Below are positions 38,510 through 48,566 of a stretch of DNA of 64,000 nt, in pieces. Location of the stretch: the NCBI RefSeq assembly GCF_988242995.1, contig NZ_OZ547043.1; one strand, written 5' to 3'. The translations under genes were made by a program, and so were the position numbers. The notes below the pieces were generated by a model that did not search any database, was not told where the DNA came from, and saw only the letters and a program-made list of their open reading frames with translations. Position 1 is the stretch's first letter. Every line of letters begins with the position of its first letter.

Positions 38510-39109
38510 ATGATTAAGGTGTATGGCGTACCCGGATGGGGCTCTACAATCAGTGAGCTGATGCTAACACTGGCTGATATCCCTTATCAGTTCGTTGGTG
38601 TCAGTGGTTTTGACCACGAGGGAACTTCACGCGAGTTATTGAAAACCCTGAACCCGTTGTGTCAGGTTCCGACACTGGCGCTGGAAAATGACGAGATTAT
38701 GACGGAGACAGCGGCGATTGCATTGATGGTTCTCGATCGTCGCCCGGACCTTGCGCCACCGCTTGGGCGCGCCGAACGTCAGCAGTTTCAACGGCTATTG
38801 GTCTGGCTGGTTGCTAATGTCTATCCAACGTTCACTTTCGCCGATTACCCTGAGCTTTGGGCTCCTGACGCGCCTGAACAGTTAAAGAAGAATGTTATTG
38901 AATATCGTTTTATATCTGGTTGAATTCGCAGCTCACTGCTGAACCTTATGCGTTTGGCGATCAGCTACCCTTATCTCTGCGTTATGCGCATATGGGGACC
39001 GGGGCATGAATGGTTTCAAGATAATGCCGCGAATATCAGTGCGATTGCTGATGCTGTATGTCCGATACCAACGTTACAAGAAATACTAAAAAGGAATGCC
39101 ATTATTTAA
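38510..39109 (+). pseudogene. yncG: glutathione S-transferase-like gene yncG, disrupted by frameshifts
   Basis: N-terminal GST-like ORF ends prematurely at 38923 (137 aa); downstream sequence continues GST-like in two other frames (…YIWLNSQLTAEPYAFGDQL… then …YLCVMRIWGPGHEWFQDNAANISAIADAVC…), implying at least two indels. Confidence 0.7.
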
Positions 39110-39329: not shown

Positions 39330-40685
39330 AGGGCAGAGCGGTAGCGTATCAGGGAAAAAGCATGAAAGCCCGCGCCCCACAAGACTTTGGTGAATGATGA
39401 ATTTTTAAATCGCGACATTACTTTTATCGTAAAACCCATCATGTTGATCTTTTTTTTCGATCAATTTGACCATCTTATTTCAGTGTGATCTTATCCTTTC
39501 TTTTTGATGGATAGCACACCATGAACGGACTAAGCCTTTTGGATCAAATTTCAATTATTCACGATTATCGCCAGTCCTGGAAAACCAGTTACAGCCTGGC
39601 GGATATCCTTTTTCTGACGATCACCGCCATTATCGGTGGCGCTGAAGGATGGGAAGAAATTGCTGATTTTGGTGAGGAGCATCTGGAATGGTTACGCCTG
39701 TATGGTGATTTTGAAAATGGCACCCCCTCCCATCACACGATTGCCCGAGTGATGGGAATGATTTCAGCAAAACAATTACAGCCCCTTTTTATCCAGTAGA
39801 TGAAGGACTGTCACACGTTGTCTGAAGGCTCTGTTGTGGCGATTGATGGTAAGTCATTACGGGGTACTTACGATAAATCGAAACGTAATGCCGTGATCCA
39901 TAGGGTCAGTGCTTTTAGCGCAGAAAATCGTCTGGTTTTGGGGCAGGTGAAAACAGGGGCAAAATCGAATGAGATAACGGCGATCCCGGAACGGCTCCAG
40001 TTGCTGGAATTAAAAGGGTGTCTGGTCACGCTGGATGCAATGGGTTGCCAGCATATAATCGCCCGTGAAATTCTGAAAAAGAAAGCCGGTTACCTGCTGG
40101 CGCTGAAAGGAAATCAGGGAAAATTAGCGGAGGCGTTTGATAACGGGTACTCGCCGACAATGTGGCTGGGTGAGAGGTATGACAGTTACAGCACGCAGGA
40201 AAAAGGGCATGGACGGGAAGATACACGATGCTGCATTGTGAGCCATGATTTAACCGCTCTGGGTGATTTAGCTTATGAATGGTCAGAGCTGAGCACGATA
40301 GGAATAGTGCTGGCGAGCAGACAGGAAGGAGAAACAGCGGTGAAATCAGAGAAGTGTATTCTTCGCTACTACATAAGTTCGGTGACGCTTACGGCGAAAG
40401 AACTCCTGGAAGCAACACGAGCACACTGGTCGGTAGAAAATCAACTGCACTGGCGACTTGATATGGGGATGCGGGAAGATGAATGCCAGATTGTTCGTGG
40501 AGAAGCGGGAGAAAATCTGGCAGTTTGTCGACATATCGCGATGAATTTACTGACCGCAGAGAATAGCTTTAAAGCGGGTATTAAACGCAAGCAAAAGCGG
40601 GCAGGACGTAAGAATGAATACCTTTCTCTAATCCTTGCTGGCTGCGGGCCTTCATGATTTCGCCCTGCGGTTAGAGGTTAATTAT
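39330..40685 (+). mobile_element. H-repeat (ISAs1-family) element, copy 1 (ends approximate)
   Basis: ~100-bp conserved upstream block (ATGAAAGCCCGCGCCCCACAAG...CATCATGTTG) shared with the second copy at ~46100; transposase-like ORF; similar sequence just after both stop codons. Confidence 0.6.
39521..40657 (+). pseudogene. H-repeat-associated (ISAs1-family) transposase interrupted by in-frame amber codon
   Basis: 92-aa and 285-aa ORFs are in the same frame, separated only by TAG at 39797-39799; combined 378 codons, same length as the intact paralog at 46358..47494. Confidence 0.75.
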
Positions 40686-41078: not shown

Positions 41079-44000
41079 ATGAGCGGAAAACCGGCGGCGC
41101 GACAGGGCGATATGACCCGCAAGGGACTGGATATTGTGCAGGGTTCAGCGGGGGTGCTGATAGGTGCGCCGACGGGAGTGGCCTGCTCGGTGTGTCCCAA
41201 CAGCCCGGTGGAGGAGCAGAAGGGTAACCCGGTGAACCCGCTACTGGGTGCGAAGGTGCTGCCGGGCGAGACGGATCTTGCGCTGCCCGGCCCGTTGCCG
41301 TTTATTCTTTCCCGCGCCTACAGCAGCTACCGGACCAGGACACCCGCGCCGGTGGGGGTGTTTGGTCCCGGCTGGAAAGCGCCCTTCGATATCCGCTTAC
41401 AGGTTCATGAGCGGGAACTGATACTCAACGACAGTGGCGGCAGGAGCATTCACTTTGAGCCGCTGTTTCCCGGCGAGATAAGCTACAGCCGCAGCGAGTC
41501 GTTCTGGCTGGCAAGGGGCGGGGTGGCGGAGCAGCACAGTTCGCAGCCGCTAAGCGCGCTCTGGCAGGTGCTGCCGGAGAGTCTCCGCTTAAGCCCGCAT
41601 GTGTACCTGGCGACAAACAGCCTTCAGGGGCCGTGGTGGATACTCGGCTGGCCGGAGCGGGTACCGGAGGCGGACGAGGTGCTGCCGCCGGAGCCGCCCG
41701 CATACCGGGTGCTGACGGGCGTGGTGGACGGCTTCGGGCGGACGCTGGCCTTCCACCGGGCGGCAGAGGGGGAAGCGGCGGGCGCGGTGACGGGGGTGAC
41801 GGACGGCGCGGGCCGCCGTTTTCATCTGGCGCTGACCACACAGGCGCAGCGGGCGAAAGCCTTCCGTAAACAGCGCGAGTCTTCTTTATCTTCTCCGGCC
41901 AGTCCCCGTTCTGTTTCCTCTTCTCAGTTTTTCCCCGACACGCTGCCCACCGGTACAGAGTACGGTGCCGATAACGGTATCCGGCTGGAGGCGGTATGGC
42001 TGACACACGACCCGGCATACCCGGATGAACTGCCGACTGCGCCGCTGGCGCGCTACACGTACACGGCCAGCGGAGAACTGCGGGCGGTGTATGACCGCAG
42101 CGGTACGCAGGTGCGCGGGTTTACTTATGATGCGGAGCACGCCGGGCGGATGGTGGCGCACCATTATGCGGGGAGGCCGGAGAGCCGCTACCGGTATGAT
42201 GATACCGGTCGGGTGACGGAGCAGGTCAACCCGGAGGGGCTGGACTACCGCTTTGAGTACGGGCAGGACCGCGTGACCATCACGGACAGCCTGAACCGGC
42301 GGGAGGTGCTGTACACGGAGGGCGAGGGCGGCCTGAAGCGGGTGGTGAAGAAGGAGTATGGGGACGGGAGCATCACCCGCAGCGAGTATGATGAGGCGGG
42401 GAGGCTGAAGGCGCAGACGGATGCGGCGGGACGGCGGACGGAGTACCGGCTGCATATGGCGTCGGGAAAGCTGACTTCAGTGATACTGCCGGACGGCAGG
42501 ACGGTACGGTATGGTTACAACAACCAGTTGCAACTGACGTCAGTGACGTACCCGGACGGGCTGCGCCGCAGCCGGAAATATGACCGTCAGGGCAGGCTGG
42601 CGGAAGAGGTCTCGCGCAACGGTAACATTACGCGCTGGTTTTATGATTCTTCCCGCAGTGGCCTGCCCTGTGCGGTGGAAGACGGAACCGGGGTGAGGCG
42701 GAGAATAACGCGAAACCGGTACGGTCAGCTTCAGGCATTTACGGACTGTTCAGGGTACACGACGCGGTATGAATACGACCGGTACGGTCAGAGGACGGCG
42801 GTTCACCGGGAGGAAGGCATCAGCACTTACAGCAGTTATAACCCGCGTGGTCAACTGGTCAGTCAGAAGGATGCGCAGGGACGTGAAACCCGTTATGAGT
42901 ACAGCGCCGCAGGCGACCTCACCGCTATCATTGCCCCGAACGGCAGCCGGAGTGAGACACAGTATGATGCGTGGGGAAAGGCCGTCAGCACCACGCAGGG
43001 CGGACTGACGCGCAGCATGGAGTATGACGCCGCCGGGAGCATCACCGTGCTGACCAACGAGAACGGCAGCCAGTCCACGTTCCGGTATGACCCGGTGGAC
43101 AGGCTGACGGAGCAGCGCGGCTTTGACGGCAGGACACAGCGTTACCGGTACAGCGCCACAGGGCAGCTCATCCGCAGCGAGGATGAGGGGCAGGTCACGC
43201 AGTGGTACTACGATGACGCCGGGCGCATCACGCACCGGACGGTGAACGGCGACCCGGCGGAGCAGTGGCAGTATGACGACCACGGCTGGCTGACAGAAAT
43301 CAGCCACCTGAGCGAAGGCCACCGTGTGGCGGTCCACTACGGCTATGACGATAAAGGCCGCCTGACGGGCGAACGGCAGACGGTGGAGAACCAGGAGACG
43401 GGGGAGATGCTGTGGGAGCATGAGACGAGGCACGTCTACAGCGAACAGGGGCTGGCGACCCGTCAGGAGCCGGACGGTCTGCCGCCGGTGGAGTGGCTGA
43501 CGTATGGCAGCGGTTATCTTGCGGGGATGAAGCTGGGCGGAACGCCGCTGGTCGAGTACACGCGGGACCGGCTGCACCGTGAGACGGCCCGCAGCTTCGG
43601 CGGGGCGGGCAGTACAGCGGGGTACGAACAGGCCACGGCGTACACCCTCACAGGGCAGCTCCGGAGCAGGCACCTGAACCTTCCGCAGCTTGACCGTGAG
43701 TATACGTGGAACGATAACGGGCAACTGGTGCGCATCAGCGGCCCGCAGGAGAGCCGGAAGTACCGTTACAGCGACACGGGAAGACTGACGGGCGTTCACA
43801 CCACGGCGGCGAACCTGGATATCGATATCCCGTATGCGACGGACCCGGCAGGAAACCGGCTGCCGGACCCGGAACTGCACCCGGACAGCACCTTCACGGC
43901 GTGGCCGGATAACCGCATCACGGAAGATGCGCACTATGTCTACCGCTACGATGAATACGGCAGGCTGGCGGAGAAGACGGACCGTATCCCGGAAGGGGTG

Positions 44001-45290
44001 ATACGGATGCACGACGAGCGGACGCACCACTACCATTACGACAGCCAGCACCGCCTGGTGTTCTACACGCGGATACAGCACGGCGAGCCACAGGTGGAGA
44101 GCCGCTACCTCTATGACCCGCTGGGCCGCCGGACGGGGAAACGGGTGTGGCGGCGGGAGCGTGACCTGACGGGGTGGATGTCGCTGTCGCGTAAACCGGA
44201 GGAGACCTGGTACGGGTGGGACGGTGACAGGCTGACGACGGTACAGACCGGCACCACGCGTATCCAGACGGTATACCAGCCGGGGAGCTTCACGCCGCTC
44301 ATCAGAATCGAAACAGAGAATGGTGAACAGGCGAAGGCGCGGCACCGGAGTCTGGCGGAGGTGTTGCAGGAGGACACGGGGGTGACGCTACCGGCGGAGC
44401 TGTCGGTGATGCTGGGGAGGCTGGAGCGGGAACTGCGCGCGGGTGCGGTGAGTGCGGAGAGTGAGGCATGGCTTCAGCAGTGCGGGCTGACGGCGGAACA
44501 GATGAAAAACCAGATGGAGGCGGAATACATCCCGGAGAGGACACTTCATCTTTACCACTGCGACCACCGGGGGCTGCCGCAGGCGCTCATCAGCCCGGAA
44601 GGGGAAACGGCGTGGCAGGGGGAGTATGACGAGTGGGGAAACCTGCTGGGCGAAACCAGCGCGCAGCAACTGCAACAGCCGTACCGTCTGCCGGGGCAGC
44701 AGTATGATGAGGAGTCGGGGCTGTACTATAACCGCAACCGGTACTATGACCCGTTGCAGGGGCGGTATATCACCCAGGATCCCATTGGGCTAAGAGGTGC
44801 ATGGAACCTGTATCAGTATCCATTGAATCCAACTACTAAGATAGATCCGTTGGGTCTCTCCGGAGAAGATTCCATAGAGCAGTCAGGTCCATCTTGGTTG
44901 ATTGCTGACCCCATGGATAAATACAGACAACAGGCAGTGATGGGTTTAACAAAATTGTGGGATGATACCTTTAGTCAAGAGAAGACTAAATGTTTACCTA
45001 CGACACCTGAAAACATCAGGATGGTTGTGGCCAACAGTCCCTTGTTGACAGTACAACAAAAAGTCTCAGTACCCGTAGTAGCTCACTACGTACAAATGCT
45101 GGAAGATGGTAGTGGAGCACCACCGGTTGATATGGATGGGAATGTGATTGTTAATGGTAATCACAGGATGGTTGCGGGTCTGTTATGTGATAAACTTCCT
45201 CCTGAGCGGCCAGGTACGCGTCCATTATCGGCACCACTATATCCGTTTAGCCAAATTTTTCCGGAGTTAGATGATTGGGGGAATAGATGA
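41079..45290 (+). CDS. Rhs-family polymorphic toxin, full length (PAAR-like N-terminus, YD-repeat shell, DPxGL boundary, variable C-terminal toxin tip)
   Basis: 1403 aa; N-terminus [12 protein letters not shown]...GVACSVCPN; many YD repeats; conserved core end ...[33 protein letters not shown] (ends 44858); GC-rich core, AT-rich tip after 44858. Confidence 0.95.
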
Positions 45291-45772
45291 TAAGAATCGC
45301 GTTTTTAATAACCAATAAATTTCTTGATATAGATAGTACCACTCTTGCTGGATATGATTTTAGCGGGATGGATCTACATCGTGCCATCCTCAATGGTTAT
45401 TGTCTTGATGGGGCGAAATTTGAAAATTCCCATTTAAGAAATGTAATGATTCAACATACATCAACTAGAAATGCTGTCTTTCGCAATGCGGCTCTGATGA
45501 ACGCTATTCTTAATAACTCAGATTTCACTGGAAGTGACTTTAGTAATTCAAGGTCAATAGGTGCAAACTTTGAGGGTGCTATATTAACTAATTCAACCTT
45601 TTGCAATGCAGACGTTAAAGATTCAAATTTTTCTGGTGCTGACTTATGTGGCGCTAATTTATTATGTGATAGATATGGCGATATAAATATAACAGGTGCA
45701 TTATTCGATAAAAACACCTCATGGTTAGAAGGTTTTGATCCTATAGCTCATGGGGCTATATTAAAAATATGA
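45287..45772 (+). CDS. pentapeptide-repeat protein, putative cognate immunity protein of the Rhs C-terminal toxin
   Basis: 161 aa; start overlaps rhs stop (ATGA); consecutive A(D/N)(L/F)xx pentapeptides ([40 protein letters not shown]...); AT-rich like the toxin tip. Confidence 0.8.
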
Positions 45773-46064: not shown

Positions 46065-47520
46065 GGGTGTCCGGCGTATAGCAGACATCAGGATAAAAGT
46101 ATGAAAGCCCACGCCCCACAAGGCTTTACCGGATGATGAGTTTTTAAACTACGACATTACTTTTACAGTAAAATCCATCATGTTGGTATTTTCTCTCGAA
46201 CAATTTGACGATCCACGGAAAGATCACGTAACGCTGCTTTTTTGTACTAGACAATTCGCATTTTATGTTTAACAATTGAGATATTCCTCATTACCTGAAG
46301 CTGTTTTTTATTGCGTATACATGATCAAATACTCCTTACATAATTAAGGAGAACAAAATGGAACTTAAAAAATTGATGGAACATATTTCTATTATCCCCG
46401 ATTACAGACAAGCCTGGAAAGTGGAACATAAATTTTCGGATATTCTACTGTTGACTATTTGTGCCGTTATTTCGGGTGCAGAAGGCTGGGAAGATATAGA
46501 GGATTTTGGGGAAACACATCTCGATTTTTTGAAGCAATATGGTGATTTTGATAATGGTATTCCTGTTCACGATACCATTGCCAGAGTTGTATCCTGTATC
46601 AGTCCTGCAAAATTTCACGAGTGCTTTATTAACTGGATGCGTGACTGCCATTCTTCAGATGATAAAGACGTCATCGCAATTGATGGAAAAACACTCCGGC
46701 ATTCTTATGACAAGAGTCGCCGCAAGGGAGCGATTCATGTCATTAGTGCGTTCTCAACAATGCACAGTCTGGTTATCGGACAGATCAGGACGGATGAGAA
46801 ATCCAATGAGATTACAGCTATTCCAGAACTTCTTAACATGCTGGATATTAAAGGAAAAATCATCACAACTGATGCGATGGGTTGCCAGAAAGATATTGCA
46901 GAGAAGATACAAAAACAGGGCGGTGATTATTTATTCGCTGTAAAAGGAAACCAGGGGCGGCTAAATAAAGCCTTCGAGGAAAAATTTCCGCTGAAAGAAT
47001 TAAATAATCCAGAGCATGACAGTTACGCAATTAGTGAAAAGAGTCACGGCAGAGAAGAAATCCGTCTTCACATTGTTTGCGATGTCCCTGATGAACTTAT
47101 TGATTTCACGTTTGAATGGAAAGGTCTGAAGAAATTATGCGTGGCAGTCTCCTTTCGGTCAATAATAGCAGAACAAAAGAAAGAGCCAGAAATGACGGTC
47201 AGATATTATATCAGTTCTGCTGATTTAACCGCAGAGAAGTTCGCCACAGCAATCCGAAACCACTGGCACGTGGAGAATAAGCTGCACTGGCGTCTGGACG
47301 TGGTAATGAATGAAGACGACTGCAAAATAAGAAGAGGAAATGCAGCAGAATTATTTTCAGGGATACGGCACATGGCTATTAATATTTTAACGAATGATAA
47401 GATATTTAAGGCAGGGTTAAGACGTAAGATGCGAAAAGCAGCCATGGACAGAAACTACCTGGCGTCAGTCCTTGCTGGGTGCGGGCTTTCGTAATCTTGC
47501 CCTGCGCCAAAGATTCCATA
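46065..47520 (+). mobile_element. H-repeat (ISAs1-family) element, copy 2 (ends approximate)
   Basis: conserved upstream block homologous to copy 1; intact transposase ORF. Confidence 0.6.
46358..47494 (+). CDS. ydcC: H-repeat-associated (ISAs1-family) transposase, intact (YdcC-like)
   Basis: 378 aa; [52 protein letters not shown]...; clearly related to but diverged from the copy at 39521..40657. Confidence 0.85.
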
Positions 47521-47539
47521 TAATAATATTAAGGTTGTT

Positions 47540-48175
47540 ATGAATAAAGGTAATAGATTACAACAGTTAGAAGATGCGTGTCGTGATATTATTAAAATTA
47601 ACATGTGGTATGAACTCCCCGATTATGTATTTTTTTCAATATCTGACACCATCGATGGGACGAGTGATGAATTTGCAATAAATGTGTATAAAAATATCGA
47701 TAAAAGTCTTCTTGAAATATTATTGCATCCATCTGTTTTACTGTCAGTTGTTGAGTCCTTACAAAGTAATACTATAGCTGAGTATATCGTGAAATTGTCT
47801 GGAATAGAGATGAATTATGACGACTTGCTAATATCGGATGTTAAGTCATGTCTTTTTATCAACTATGGATTCAATAACAGTGAATCGGTTGCGCTATTTA
47901 ATAAGATTTGCCGCGAATTAAAAGACATTGTAAAATCATCAAGAGTACATATAGATCATGAGAAAGATATTTTTGATGGCCTTAATCAAATCTTGGCTTT
48001 TTCCGATAATAATAAACGTGAGTATTTTTTATATATAAAGGCATATTGGCTCAGTTTATACTTTTGTGAAATTTCACAGAACGTGAGAGAAAGAGATAAG
48101 TTGTCATTTTATTATAATGAATTTTCTGTCCGATTTCCTAATGTTGTCCTATATCCGTCATGCTACAAATTGTAA
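47540..48175 (+). CDS. hypothetical protein (211 aa), AT-rich, no TM segments
   Basis: ORF track; AAGG 7 nt upstream of ATG; very low GC; no recognisable family. Confidence 0.5.
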   Translation: MNKGNRLQQLEDACRDIIKINMWYELPDYVFFSISDTIDGTSDEFAINVYKNIDKSLLEILLHPSVLLSVVESLQSNTIAEYIVKLSGIEMNYDDLLISDVKSCLFINYGFNNSESVALFNKICRELKDIVKSSRVHIDHEKDIFDGLNQILAFSDNNKREYFLYIKAYWLSLYFCEISQNVRERDKLSFYYNEFSVRFPNVVLYPSCYKL

Positions 48176-48566
48176 GGCTTGGCACCTGAAATTCATTGTT
48201 AATTCGAGACGCTTGATTGTCCACTATATCAAAACAGTCATACCTCGGAATTTCTCACATTAGTCCATACGGTATTCAATTTTCGCAACTGTGCCCTGAA
48301 ATAAAAAACTGCAAAACTGCTTTTTCTTGACCTGTCCCAATCACGCAAGACTACTTTTAGTAGAGACCTCCAGCCATATCGATTTTAGTGCCGCCCGCGC
48401 ATTTTATACAAAACAGGGCTTTATCAATGAAGCTATAATACGCAATTACTATGATGTTGGTGAGGATAAATTAATCTTCACTAAAAATATGCAATCGTGA
48501 GATAAAATATGCTTTTAACTCATATTGAAACATTGCTTACGCAACTTCGTTGCTGCATATGATTCT

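Follow-up and report, generated by a model that had tools for sequence, protein, structure and literature searches.

An AT-rich gene beside yddH in Escherichia coli probably belongs to an unnamed family of orphan and cognate immunity genes for EndoU RNase toxins

We found that the 211-codon open reading frame (ORF) beside yddH, at the right edge of a variable Escherichia coli island, is quite probably an orphan immunity gene from an unnamed family that is paired with EndoU RNase toxins (PF14436). The ORF occupies positions 47540..48175 (+ strand, ATG start) of the 64,000-nucleotide stretch of DNA analysed here (the window); it was delimited by the ORF call, the contexts of its homologs and a family alignment, and its allele is the public protein P0036. 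The initial annotation had placed a 211-codon frame at exactly this position and proposed that it encodes an orphan immunity or displaced accessory protein. This reading is supported, since homologs in other genomes lie 9-16 nt behind EndoU toxin domains or fragments of them.

The gene is real, and the observation on which the proposal was built was confirmed in all particulars. The ORF has the very low GC content described for it (30.8%, i.e. 0.308, compared with about 0.50-0.53 for the flanking core genes yddH and nhoA and 0.60-0.72 for the Rhs core). Given this composition, a codon is a stop with a probability of 0.0825, or once in ~12 codons; hence 211 open codons are unlikely to arise by chance (1.3e-8, which corresponds to ~0.002 such ORFs over the six frames of the 64 kb). 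The ATG follows the stop codon of the ISAs1 transposase (47492-47494) after the 46-nt gap noted before, and the Shine-Dalgarno (SD) sequence judged reasonable is an AAGG at 47531-47534, 5 nt before the ATG. Comparison of upstream sequences placed AAGG(G/A) at the same position before homologs of other genera. The protein was also predicted to be soluble, and we found no transmembrane segment (maximum Kyte-Doolittle 19-residue mean of 1.51) and an acidic composition with 30 D/E versus 22 K/R. A small cytoplasmic protein without transmembrane segments fits immunity to a toxin that acts in the cytoplasm.

Searches of the 211-aa protein against Pfam, NCBIfam and PADLOC returned no family at E<=1, so the earlier statement that it has no recognisable motif holds for curated libraries; it does not hold for the protein's own family, whose alignment shows clear conserved motifs. 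Sequence searches gathered about 30 clusters at 90% identity, with members 99-26% identical to the window protein and phmmer E values of 1e-78 to 4e-12; one member, P0022, is 35% identical. All recognisable members are from Enterobacterales (E. coli, E. albertii, Shigella flexneri, Pseudocitrobacter faecalis and Morganella morganii), with others on metagenomic contigs. The alignment has 12 invariant positions, and all 12 are kept in the window protein.

We found an EndoU_bacteria (PF14436) domain, or a decayed fragment of one, directly upstream of the homolog in 5 of 7 independent lineages, always on the same strand and with spacers of 9-16 nt (contigs L018, L003, L010/L012, L014 and L008). 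The initial annotation had proposed looking in other genomes for homologs downstream of toxin C-terminal domains, and had named contexts unrelated to polymorphic toxin loci as evidence against its reading; the former were found in these five lineages, with EndoU as the toxin, and the outcome was the opposite of the latter. The Logan assembly L018 has a 592-aa gene, then DUF2169 and Tox-PAAR-like, and next a 388-aa effector that carries EndoU (PF14436, E 5e-16) at its C-terminus; 16 nt separate the effector from the homolog (62% identical to the window protein), behind which lies an ISAs1 transposase. Pseudocitrobacter (L003, homolog also 62% identical) has the same module with its effector as two overlapping calls: L003 3235-4400 in P. 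faecalis is called as overlapping 272-aa and 135-aa ORFs where L018 3382-4548 is a single 388-aa ORF, which suggests a frameshift in the P. faecalis EndoU effector with the immunity gene intact.

The other lineages present the same pair in other settings. In Morganella morganii (L010), a 214-aa ORF made of a Pyocin_S linker and EndoU precedes the homolog (33% identical) by 14 nt and adjoins a Colicin_D/Colicin_immun module, and this EndoU module is part of an orphan array that comes after VgrG, DUF4123 and a deaminase effector. The array itself (L010 4468-12015) is a long run of orphan modules behind VgrG-DUF4123-deaminase/SMI1_KNR4, and each of its toxin fragments opens with a weak Pyocin_S-like linker (EndoU; Colicin_D with Colicin_immun; two unknown tips); this linker may be a recombination handle for tip swapping. 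On metagenomic contig L014, a 134-aa EndoU ORF, a 9-nt spacer and the homolog (27% identical, as on L013) are followed by Rhs fragments. Shigella keeps an 88-aa C-terminal EndoU fragment (26.4 bits, above the Pfam GA) 16 nt before a homolog of 52% identity, and in E. albertii a frameshifted remnant with the last ~36 EndoU codons (E 0.096) precedes the homolog. The Shigella-related contig L017 starts just 74 nt upstream of its homolog, and the N-terminal extension of its ORF call is a read-through of upstream sequence that it shares with Shigella. In the L009 lineage no toxin was found in the surrounding context, and the homolog is a 401-aa call directly after flgN (L009 8001-9206) that has the immunity-family domain at residues ~73-255 and ~125 extra C-terminal residues with no Pfam match; possible explanations are an overlong call, the fusion of two immunity proteins into one or a fold put to another use.

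The linkage therefore tracks the toxin domain across delivery types, from the PAAR-like/DUF2169 cargo effector and the Pyocin_S-linker module to bare orphan fragments and an Rhs-fragment neighbourhood. Because homologs lie right behind an EndoU domain whatever the delivery context, they carry the signature of cognate immunity. The partner EndoU toxins form one clade (57-97% identical), and every full-length member keeps GGGHGQ, NIPxHxxKxKR and GTMTSG. The Tox-EndoU signature consists of His, His and Ser/Thr (PMC3482391), and the EndoU-fold tRNase CdiA-CT-STECO31 has a His-His-Lys triad (PMC9086364); judged by their motifs, the partner toxins appear to fit both. In the same module pairs the immunity proteins are 28-58% identical versus 57-97% for the toxins; hence the immunity protein diverges faster than the toxin. 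Such faster divergence of immunity proteins is the usual pattern.

We propose that the 211-aa product is a cytoplasmic, acidic, all-alpha immunity protein of a family that would neutralise one EndoU (PF14436) clade, most likely by direct 1:1 binding that blocks access to RNA. By analogy with polymorphic toxin/immunity pairs (PMC3482391, PMC3150448, PMC9086364), the family is expected to bind the EndoU domain and so neutralise it.

[quoted passage not shown] We consider this quite improbable. T6SS adaptors are typically encoded upstream of the effector. Here the gene stands behind the toxin domain with every type of delivery part, and even behind bare EndoU fragments that could not be secreted; moreover, the adaptor role is already filled by DUF2169 or DUF4123, the protein diverges faster than the toxin, and the gene persists alone where the effector is absent. 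We rejected the adaptor reading on the gene's place behind the toxin domain, the role already filled and its persistence without the effector.

In the window the immunity gene stands alone. No EndoU domain was found by tblastn anywhere in the 64 kb; hence the 211-aa gene is a true orphan there. Nor did tblastn detect an EndoU remnant upstream of the copies in E. coli 042 and EC42405, and what remains upstream of the E. coli copies is a short nucleotide resemblance around the stop codon and SD. The ORF is preceded by a native 35-nt leader (47505..47539, + strand) that every E. coli carrier retains; position 47505 is the precise start of the cross-genome homology, and the leader includes a TATAAT (47519-47524) as well as the SD AAGG (47531-47534). 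The leader possibly holds the last bases of the lost toxin gene, its stop codon and the intergenic spacer (AATAATATTAAGG versus AATAATATCAAGG in E. albertii), a short match that is suggestive only. By blastn we found no EndoU toxin in 5,426 complete E. coli genomes, a search at the DNA level that diverged toxins could escape. Since these genomes hold, at the DNA level, no EndoU toxin of the clade, any benefit of the gene would have to be protection from the effectors of other species.

We envisage the following history. The ancestral module would be the one intact in L018, namely a T6SS cargo effector that ends in an EndoU domain and, after 16 nt, an immunity gene whose SD is conserved. The E. 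coli lineage would have lost the toxin gene wholly, with the immunity gene persisting beside yddH as the last member of an orphan immunity-type array. In the window, an ISAs1 copy appears to have joined 35 nt upstream of the ATG, with the older upstream sequence gone. As an orphan, the protein could act only on toxin delivered from outside.

The window covers the yncG-yddH variable VgrG/Rhs island of E. coli, which is the rhsE locus of K-12. The gene order is a truncated H-repeat, Rhs, a pentapeptide-repeat ORF, ISAs1, the 211-aa ORF, a 391-bp gap, yddH (- strand), nhoA and yddE. At the same junction K-12 has ydcC (the same IS), pptA and yddH, without the 211-aa ORF, and pptA is missing from the whole window. 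At the left edge yncG (38510-38923) appears truncated, with 137 aa and the GST N-terminal domain only versus 205 aa in K-12 and 042. The initial annotation had put the ORF behind a second H-repeat, and two such elements are indeed present. The first is a 5'-truncated transposase gene just upstream of the Rhs gene (39800-40657, 285 aa, DDE_Tnp_1 only), and the second is a complete ISAs1-family element (H-repeat, ydcC equivalent; 46239..47504, + strand) whose boundaries were set by comparison with K-12, EC42405 and JNE070796 and whose transposase (46358..47494, + strand) has the Pfam domains DDE_Tnp_1_assoc and DDE_Tnp_1. Its right end, ...CTTGCCCTG, abuts the 35-nt leader.

On the other side of the ORF, the ~390 bp described as decayed are 391 bp (48176-48566) that reach up to yddH and contain what is left of a GNAT N-acetyltransferase gene. 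The remnant comprises the last 51 codons of the gene (48339..48500, + strand; GNAT Pfam matches and tblastn), and residues 105-155 of the GNAT protein of strain PT62, in which the gene is intact (155 aa), matched 48345-48497 with 96% identity by tblastn. A deletion of ~463 bp took the 5' two-thirds of the gene; mapped against L016 and L021, it is common to the window, 042 and EC42405.

We found the gene in 237 of 5,426 complete E. coli genomes (~4%; ~96% are without it), and in all carriers it is single-copy, chromosomal and adjoining yddH. It is full-length in 193 of the 237 (81%), and in the other 44 the same ISAs1 end has cut it down to a 3' stump. The cargo upstream of it varies: PAAR, VgrG, an M35 peptidase effector and an IS fragment in 042, other Rhs genes in EC42405 and JNE070796, and a string of small ORFs without any VgrG or Rhs in PT62 and L016.

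This variation bears on the resident Rhs gene of the window (41079-45290, + strand by ORF call, full-length, 1403 aa). Between the Rhs stop and the 211-aa ORF, which is downstream and on the same strand, there are ~2.2 kb that include the IS, an arrangement that would suit an RhsI of this Rhs displaced by IS insertion. We hold this to be highly improbable. The Rhs stop overlaps, by a 4-nt ATGA, its own pentapeptide-repeat ORF (45287-45772, + strand, 161 aa, Pfam E 1e-19), and the two are likely a cognate pair. The 211-aa gene is present behind the M35 peptidase effector of 042, behind another Rhs in EC42405 and also in PT62 and L016, where Rhs and VgrG are absent, and its homologs pair with EndoU whereas the resident Rhs tip has no EndoU match. 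Since the cargo upstream shows no relation between strains, the 211-aa ORF does not encode the immunity protein of this Rhs, and comparative context refutes that reading. The orphan immunity proposal of the initial annotation thus stands in a sharper form, in which the resident Rhs is not the partner; the partner is EndoU, mostly from non-Rhs T6SS cargo effectors.

The resident pair has features of its own. The Rhs tip comprises ~135 aa after the DPLGL motif and gave no Pfam match and no PDB sequence match; a 12-residue segment in it has what we take to be a resemblance to the DGxHR motif of ParB-like nuclease toxins. The pentapeptide-repeat protein has weak Qnr/MfpA-like NCBIfam matches. It is unusual for a pentapeptide protein of the DNA-mimic type to occupy the immunity position, which may be a sign that the Rhs toxin is directed at DNA.

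We found that the same ISAs1 right end meets at least five different points of the right flank among E. coli strains (47496-47504 in the window; L002, L019 and L020). In EC42405 the junction is 172 nt further upstream than in the window, where it is 35 nt before the ATG of the 211-aa gene; in JNE070796 it is at nt 388 of the gene, in GF43 at about nt 441, and in K-12 at pptA, with the gene absent. This series suggests, from the junction sequences, serial IS-adjacent deletions that would be eroding the right flank towards yddH.

Strains free of the IS at this point give a view of what may have been removed. In these strains a 186-aa ORF precedes the 211-aa gene (E. coli 042, L001 8116-8676). 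Its homolog in Citrobacter portucalensis (L022 6001-6534, 60% identical) starts 3 nt after the gene of a 1,481-aa protein that lies behind VgrG and DUF2169 and has no Pfam domain. Probably, the 186-aa gene is a further orphan immunity gene and the protein of 1,481 aa an uncharacterised T6SS effector. The right edge of the island thus resembles a short array of orphan immunity genes (the 186-aa and 211-aa genes; 3-5 small ORFs in PT62 and L016), of which the window keeps the last member only, the 211-aa gene.

These results raise the question of whether the gene still does anything in the window strain. It might be of immunity-family origin and yet a functionless relic there, with its toxin gone, its native upstream sequence removed by the IS, and the gene itself simply not destroyed so far. 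We find this unlikely, if far from negligible. It would accord with the graded junction series from EC42405 through the window, JNE070796 and GF43 to K-12, with the many truncated variants of the protein in public data and with the deletion already suffered by the neighbouring GNAT gene. The gene is also dispensable in E. coli, being missing from ~96% of genomes and destroyed by IS-adjacent deletions in 44. Against a relic, the ORF is intact in 193 of 237 carriers, the SD and the -10-like element are kept, all 12 family-invariant residues are present, and orphan immunity genes elsewhere are expressed and protective (PMC3150448).

Selection argues in the same direction, as dN/dS is significantly below 1 even within E. 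coli. We found values of 0.24-0.47 within E. coli and ~0.3 between genera; for the window and L016, the most divergent E. coli pair, there were 22 nonsynonymous to 13 synonymous changes versus ~28:7 under neutrality (binomial p=0.0125). The gene is thus under purifying selection and has an intact ORF with translation signals.

The allele of the window speaks for the relic. P0036 is found on 66 contigs, compared with at least 1000 for the common allele P0035, and comes from draft assemblies only, with none of the 5,426 complete genomes carrying it (best match 99.1% at the nucleotide level). It differs from P0035 by three residue changes, E->G, Y124->C and H->R (residues 108, 124 and 161). Position 124 is Tyr in 16 of 17 aligned family members, and the window allele is the sole exception. 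These changes are compatible with relaxed constraint, and because Y124C falls at a nearly invariant position, present-day function in the window strain is uncertain.

We infer that the E. coli protein is still expressed. That it shields the cell from EndoU effectors which other Enterobacterales inject is a nearly balanced possibility, to which we lean slightly less than to its opposite. In the window, a -35-like TTGCCC (47497-47502) lies inside the IS end, 16 nt from the native TATAAT, and forms a promoter-like site scoring 10/12. A promoter scan gave 7 promoter-like sites versus 5.7±2.5 in shuffled sequence, i.e. no enrichment, and a terminator scan found none; these scans therefore do not speak for expression.

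The AlphaFold2 (AF2) model of the 211-aa protein (pLDDT 88.5) is soluble and all-alpha with 12 helices, and neither sequence similarity nor fold similarity to PDB chains was found. Foldseek returned 280 matches at E<=10; aminopeptidase N and LTA4 hydrolase were matched in their helical domains, very weakly (E 1.5-2.6, TM<=0.24). An AF2 model of a GS-linker fusion of the L018 EndoU domain to its cognate immunity protein reached a pLDDT of 60 and a pTM of 0.44, with five paired sequences and the toxin half largely unmodelled.

The name 'aminopeptidase' is given to many family entries in NCBI and UniRef (e.g. WP_105288505.1), and one source has 'transposase'. If these names were right, the gene would encode an aminopeptidase or a transposase accessory protein, and the faint fold matches with aminopeptidase N and LTA4 hydrolase would be the structural echo of the former. 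We give this almost no credence. No peptidase family was found in Pfam or NCBIfam at E<=1, the protein has no HExxH motif, and the helical matches are generic solenoid noise among the 280 at E<=10; as for a transposase accessory, the gene occurs with or without the IS. The missing peptidase HMM, the missing HExxH and structural matches at E>1 effectively refute the aminopeptidase, and neither database name has support in sequence or structure.

We compared the gene, read as an orphan EndoU immunity gene, with known systems. For CDI/Rhs loci, orphan immunity genes have been documented that are expressed and give protection (Poole et al. 2011, PMC3150448). Like orphan cdiI and rhsI genes (PMC3150448; Koskiniemi et al. 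2014, PMC3967940), the gene follows the main toxin locus, lacks a functional cognate toxin, is AT-rich, sits among IS elements and has its own translation signals, and its relatives in Shigella and E. albertii keep a toxin-CT fragment in front. Unlike them, the E. coli gene has no toxin-CT fragment (at most ~15-30 nt are left), the ancestral partner of its family is a T6SS cargo effector and not an Rhs or CdiA tip, and it stays at a fixed junction (yddH) while the active upstream cargo is swapped. Orphan immunity genes are a common type of relic in the Rhs/T6SS islands of E. coli.

CdiI-STECO31 (PDB 5HKQ), a mixed alpha/beta protein, confers immunity to the EndoU-fold tRNase CdiA-CT-STECO31 (PMC9086364). 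The 211-aa family is predicted to do the same job, inhibiting a bacterial EndoU-type RNase with an active site of the His-His-Lys type, but it is modelled as all-alpha with 12 helices and shares no sequence or fold similarity with CdiI-STECO31. Since no similarity to any PDB chain was found, the family is, on the evidence of the model, a solution unrelated to CdiI-STECO31 and not a member of its family. Immunity families already associated with EndoU are SUKH, Imm-SuFu and Imm28 (Zhang et al. 2012, PMC3482391) and MafI of Neisseria and Salmonella (PMC4287609, PMC10469887). The 211-aa family shares their functional class and gene order, and Imm28 is also 'mostly alpha'; however, the protein matches no family HMM of Pfam-A or NCBIfam at E<=1, including SUKH/SMI1_KNR4, Imm-SuFu, Imm28, MafI and Colicin_immun. 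The family thus appears to be without a curated model, and it is set apart from Imm28 by the Pfam model only.

The nearest ecological parallel in these comparisons is defence acquired against other bacteria. In Bacteroidales, acquired interbacterial defence (AID) systems were reportedly described by Ross et al. in Nature in 2019, and V. cholerae has orphan immunity arrays. As in acquired interbacterial defence islands, the 211-aa gene lies within a toxin-less array of immunity type and could protect against the effectors of other species; unlike in those islands, the E. coli array is short, no integrase- or recombinase-driven capture system is evident, and protection is a candidate role. A more far-reaching version of our reading, in which the family is a structurally new all-alpha class of EndoU inhibitor, the E. 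coli copy is an acquired cross-species defence against the EndoU T6SS effectors of other gut Enterobacterales (with donors of the Pseudocitrobacter, Morganella or Citrobacter type) and expression in the window has been rewired by a hybrid promoter of the ISAs1 end and the native -10, is in our view doubtful and distinctly on the unlikely side.

What is new here is modest, as orphan immunity in polymorphic-toxin islands is well known: it lies in the assignment to the EndoU class, the correction of database names and the IS-mediated erosion. A gene that hundreds of genomes of E. coli, E. albertii and Shigella carry, mis-annotated as 'aminopeptidase/hypothetical', becomes a predicted EndoU-toxin immunity protein, a family lacking a Pfam or NCBIfam model is defined, and its cognate clade of T6SS EndoU effectors is identified. 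A single locus documents what seems to be the stepwise erosion of an orphan immunity array near yddH by H-repeat/ISAs1-adjacent deletions. If the gene is still protective, E. coli would offer a simple case in which cross-species T6SS immunity can be tested.
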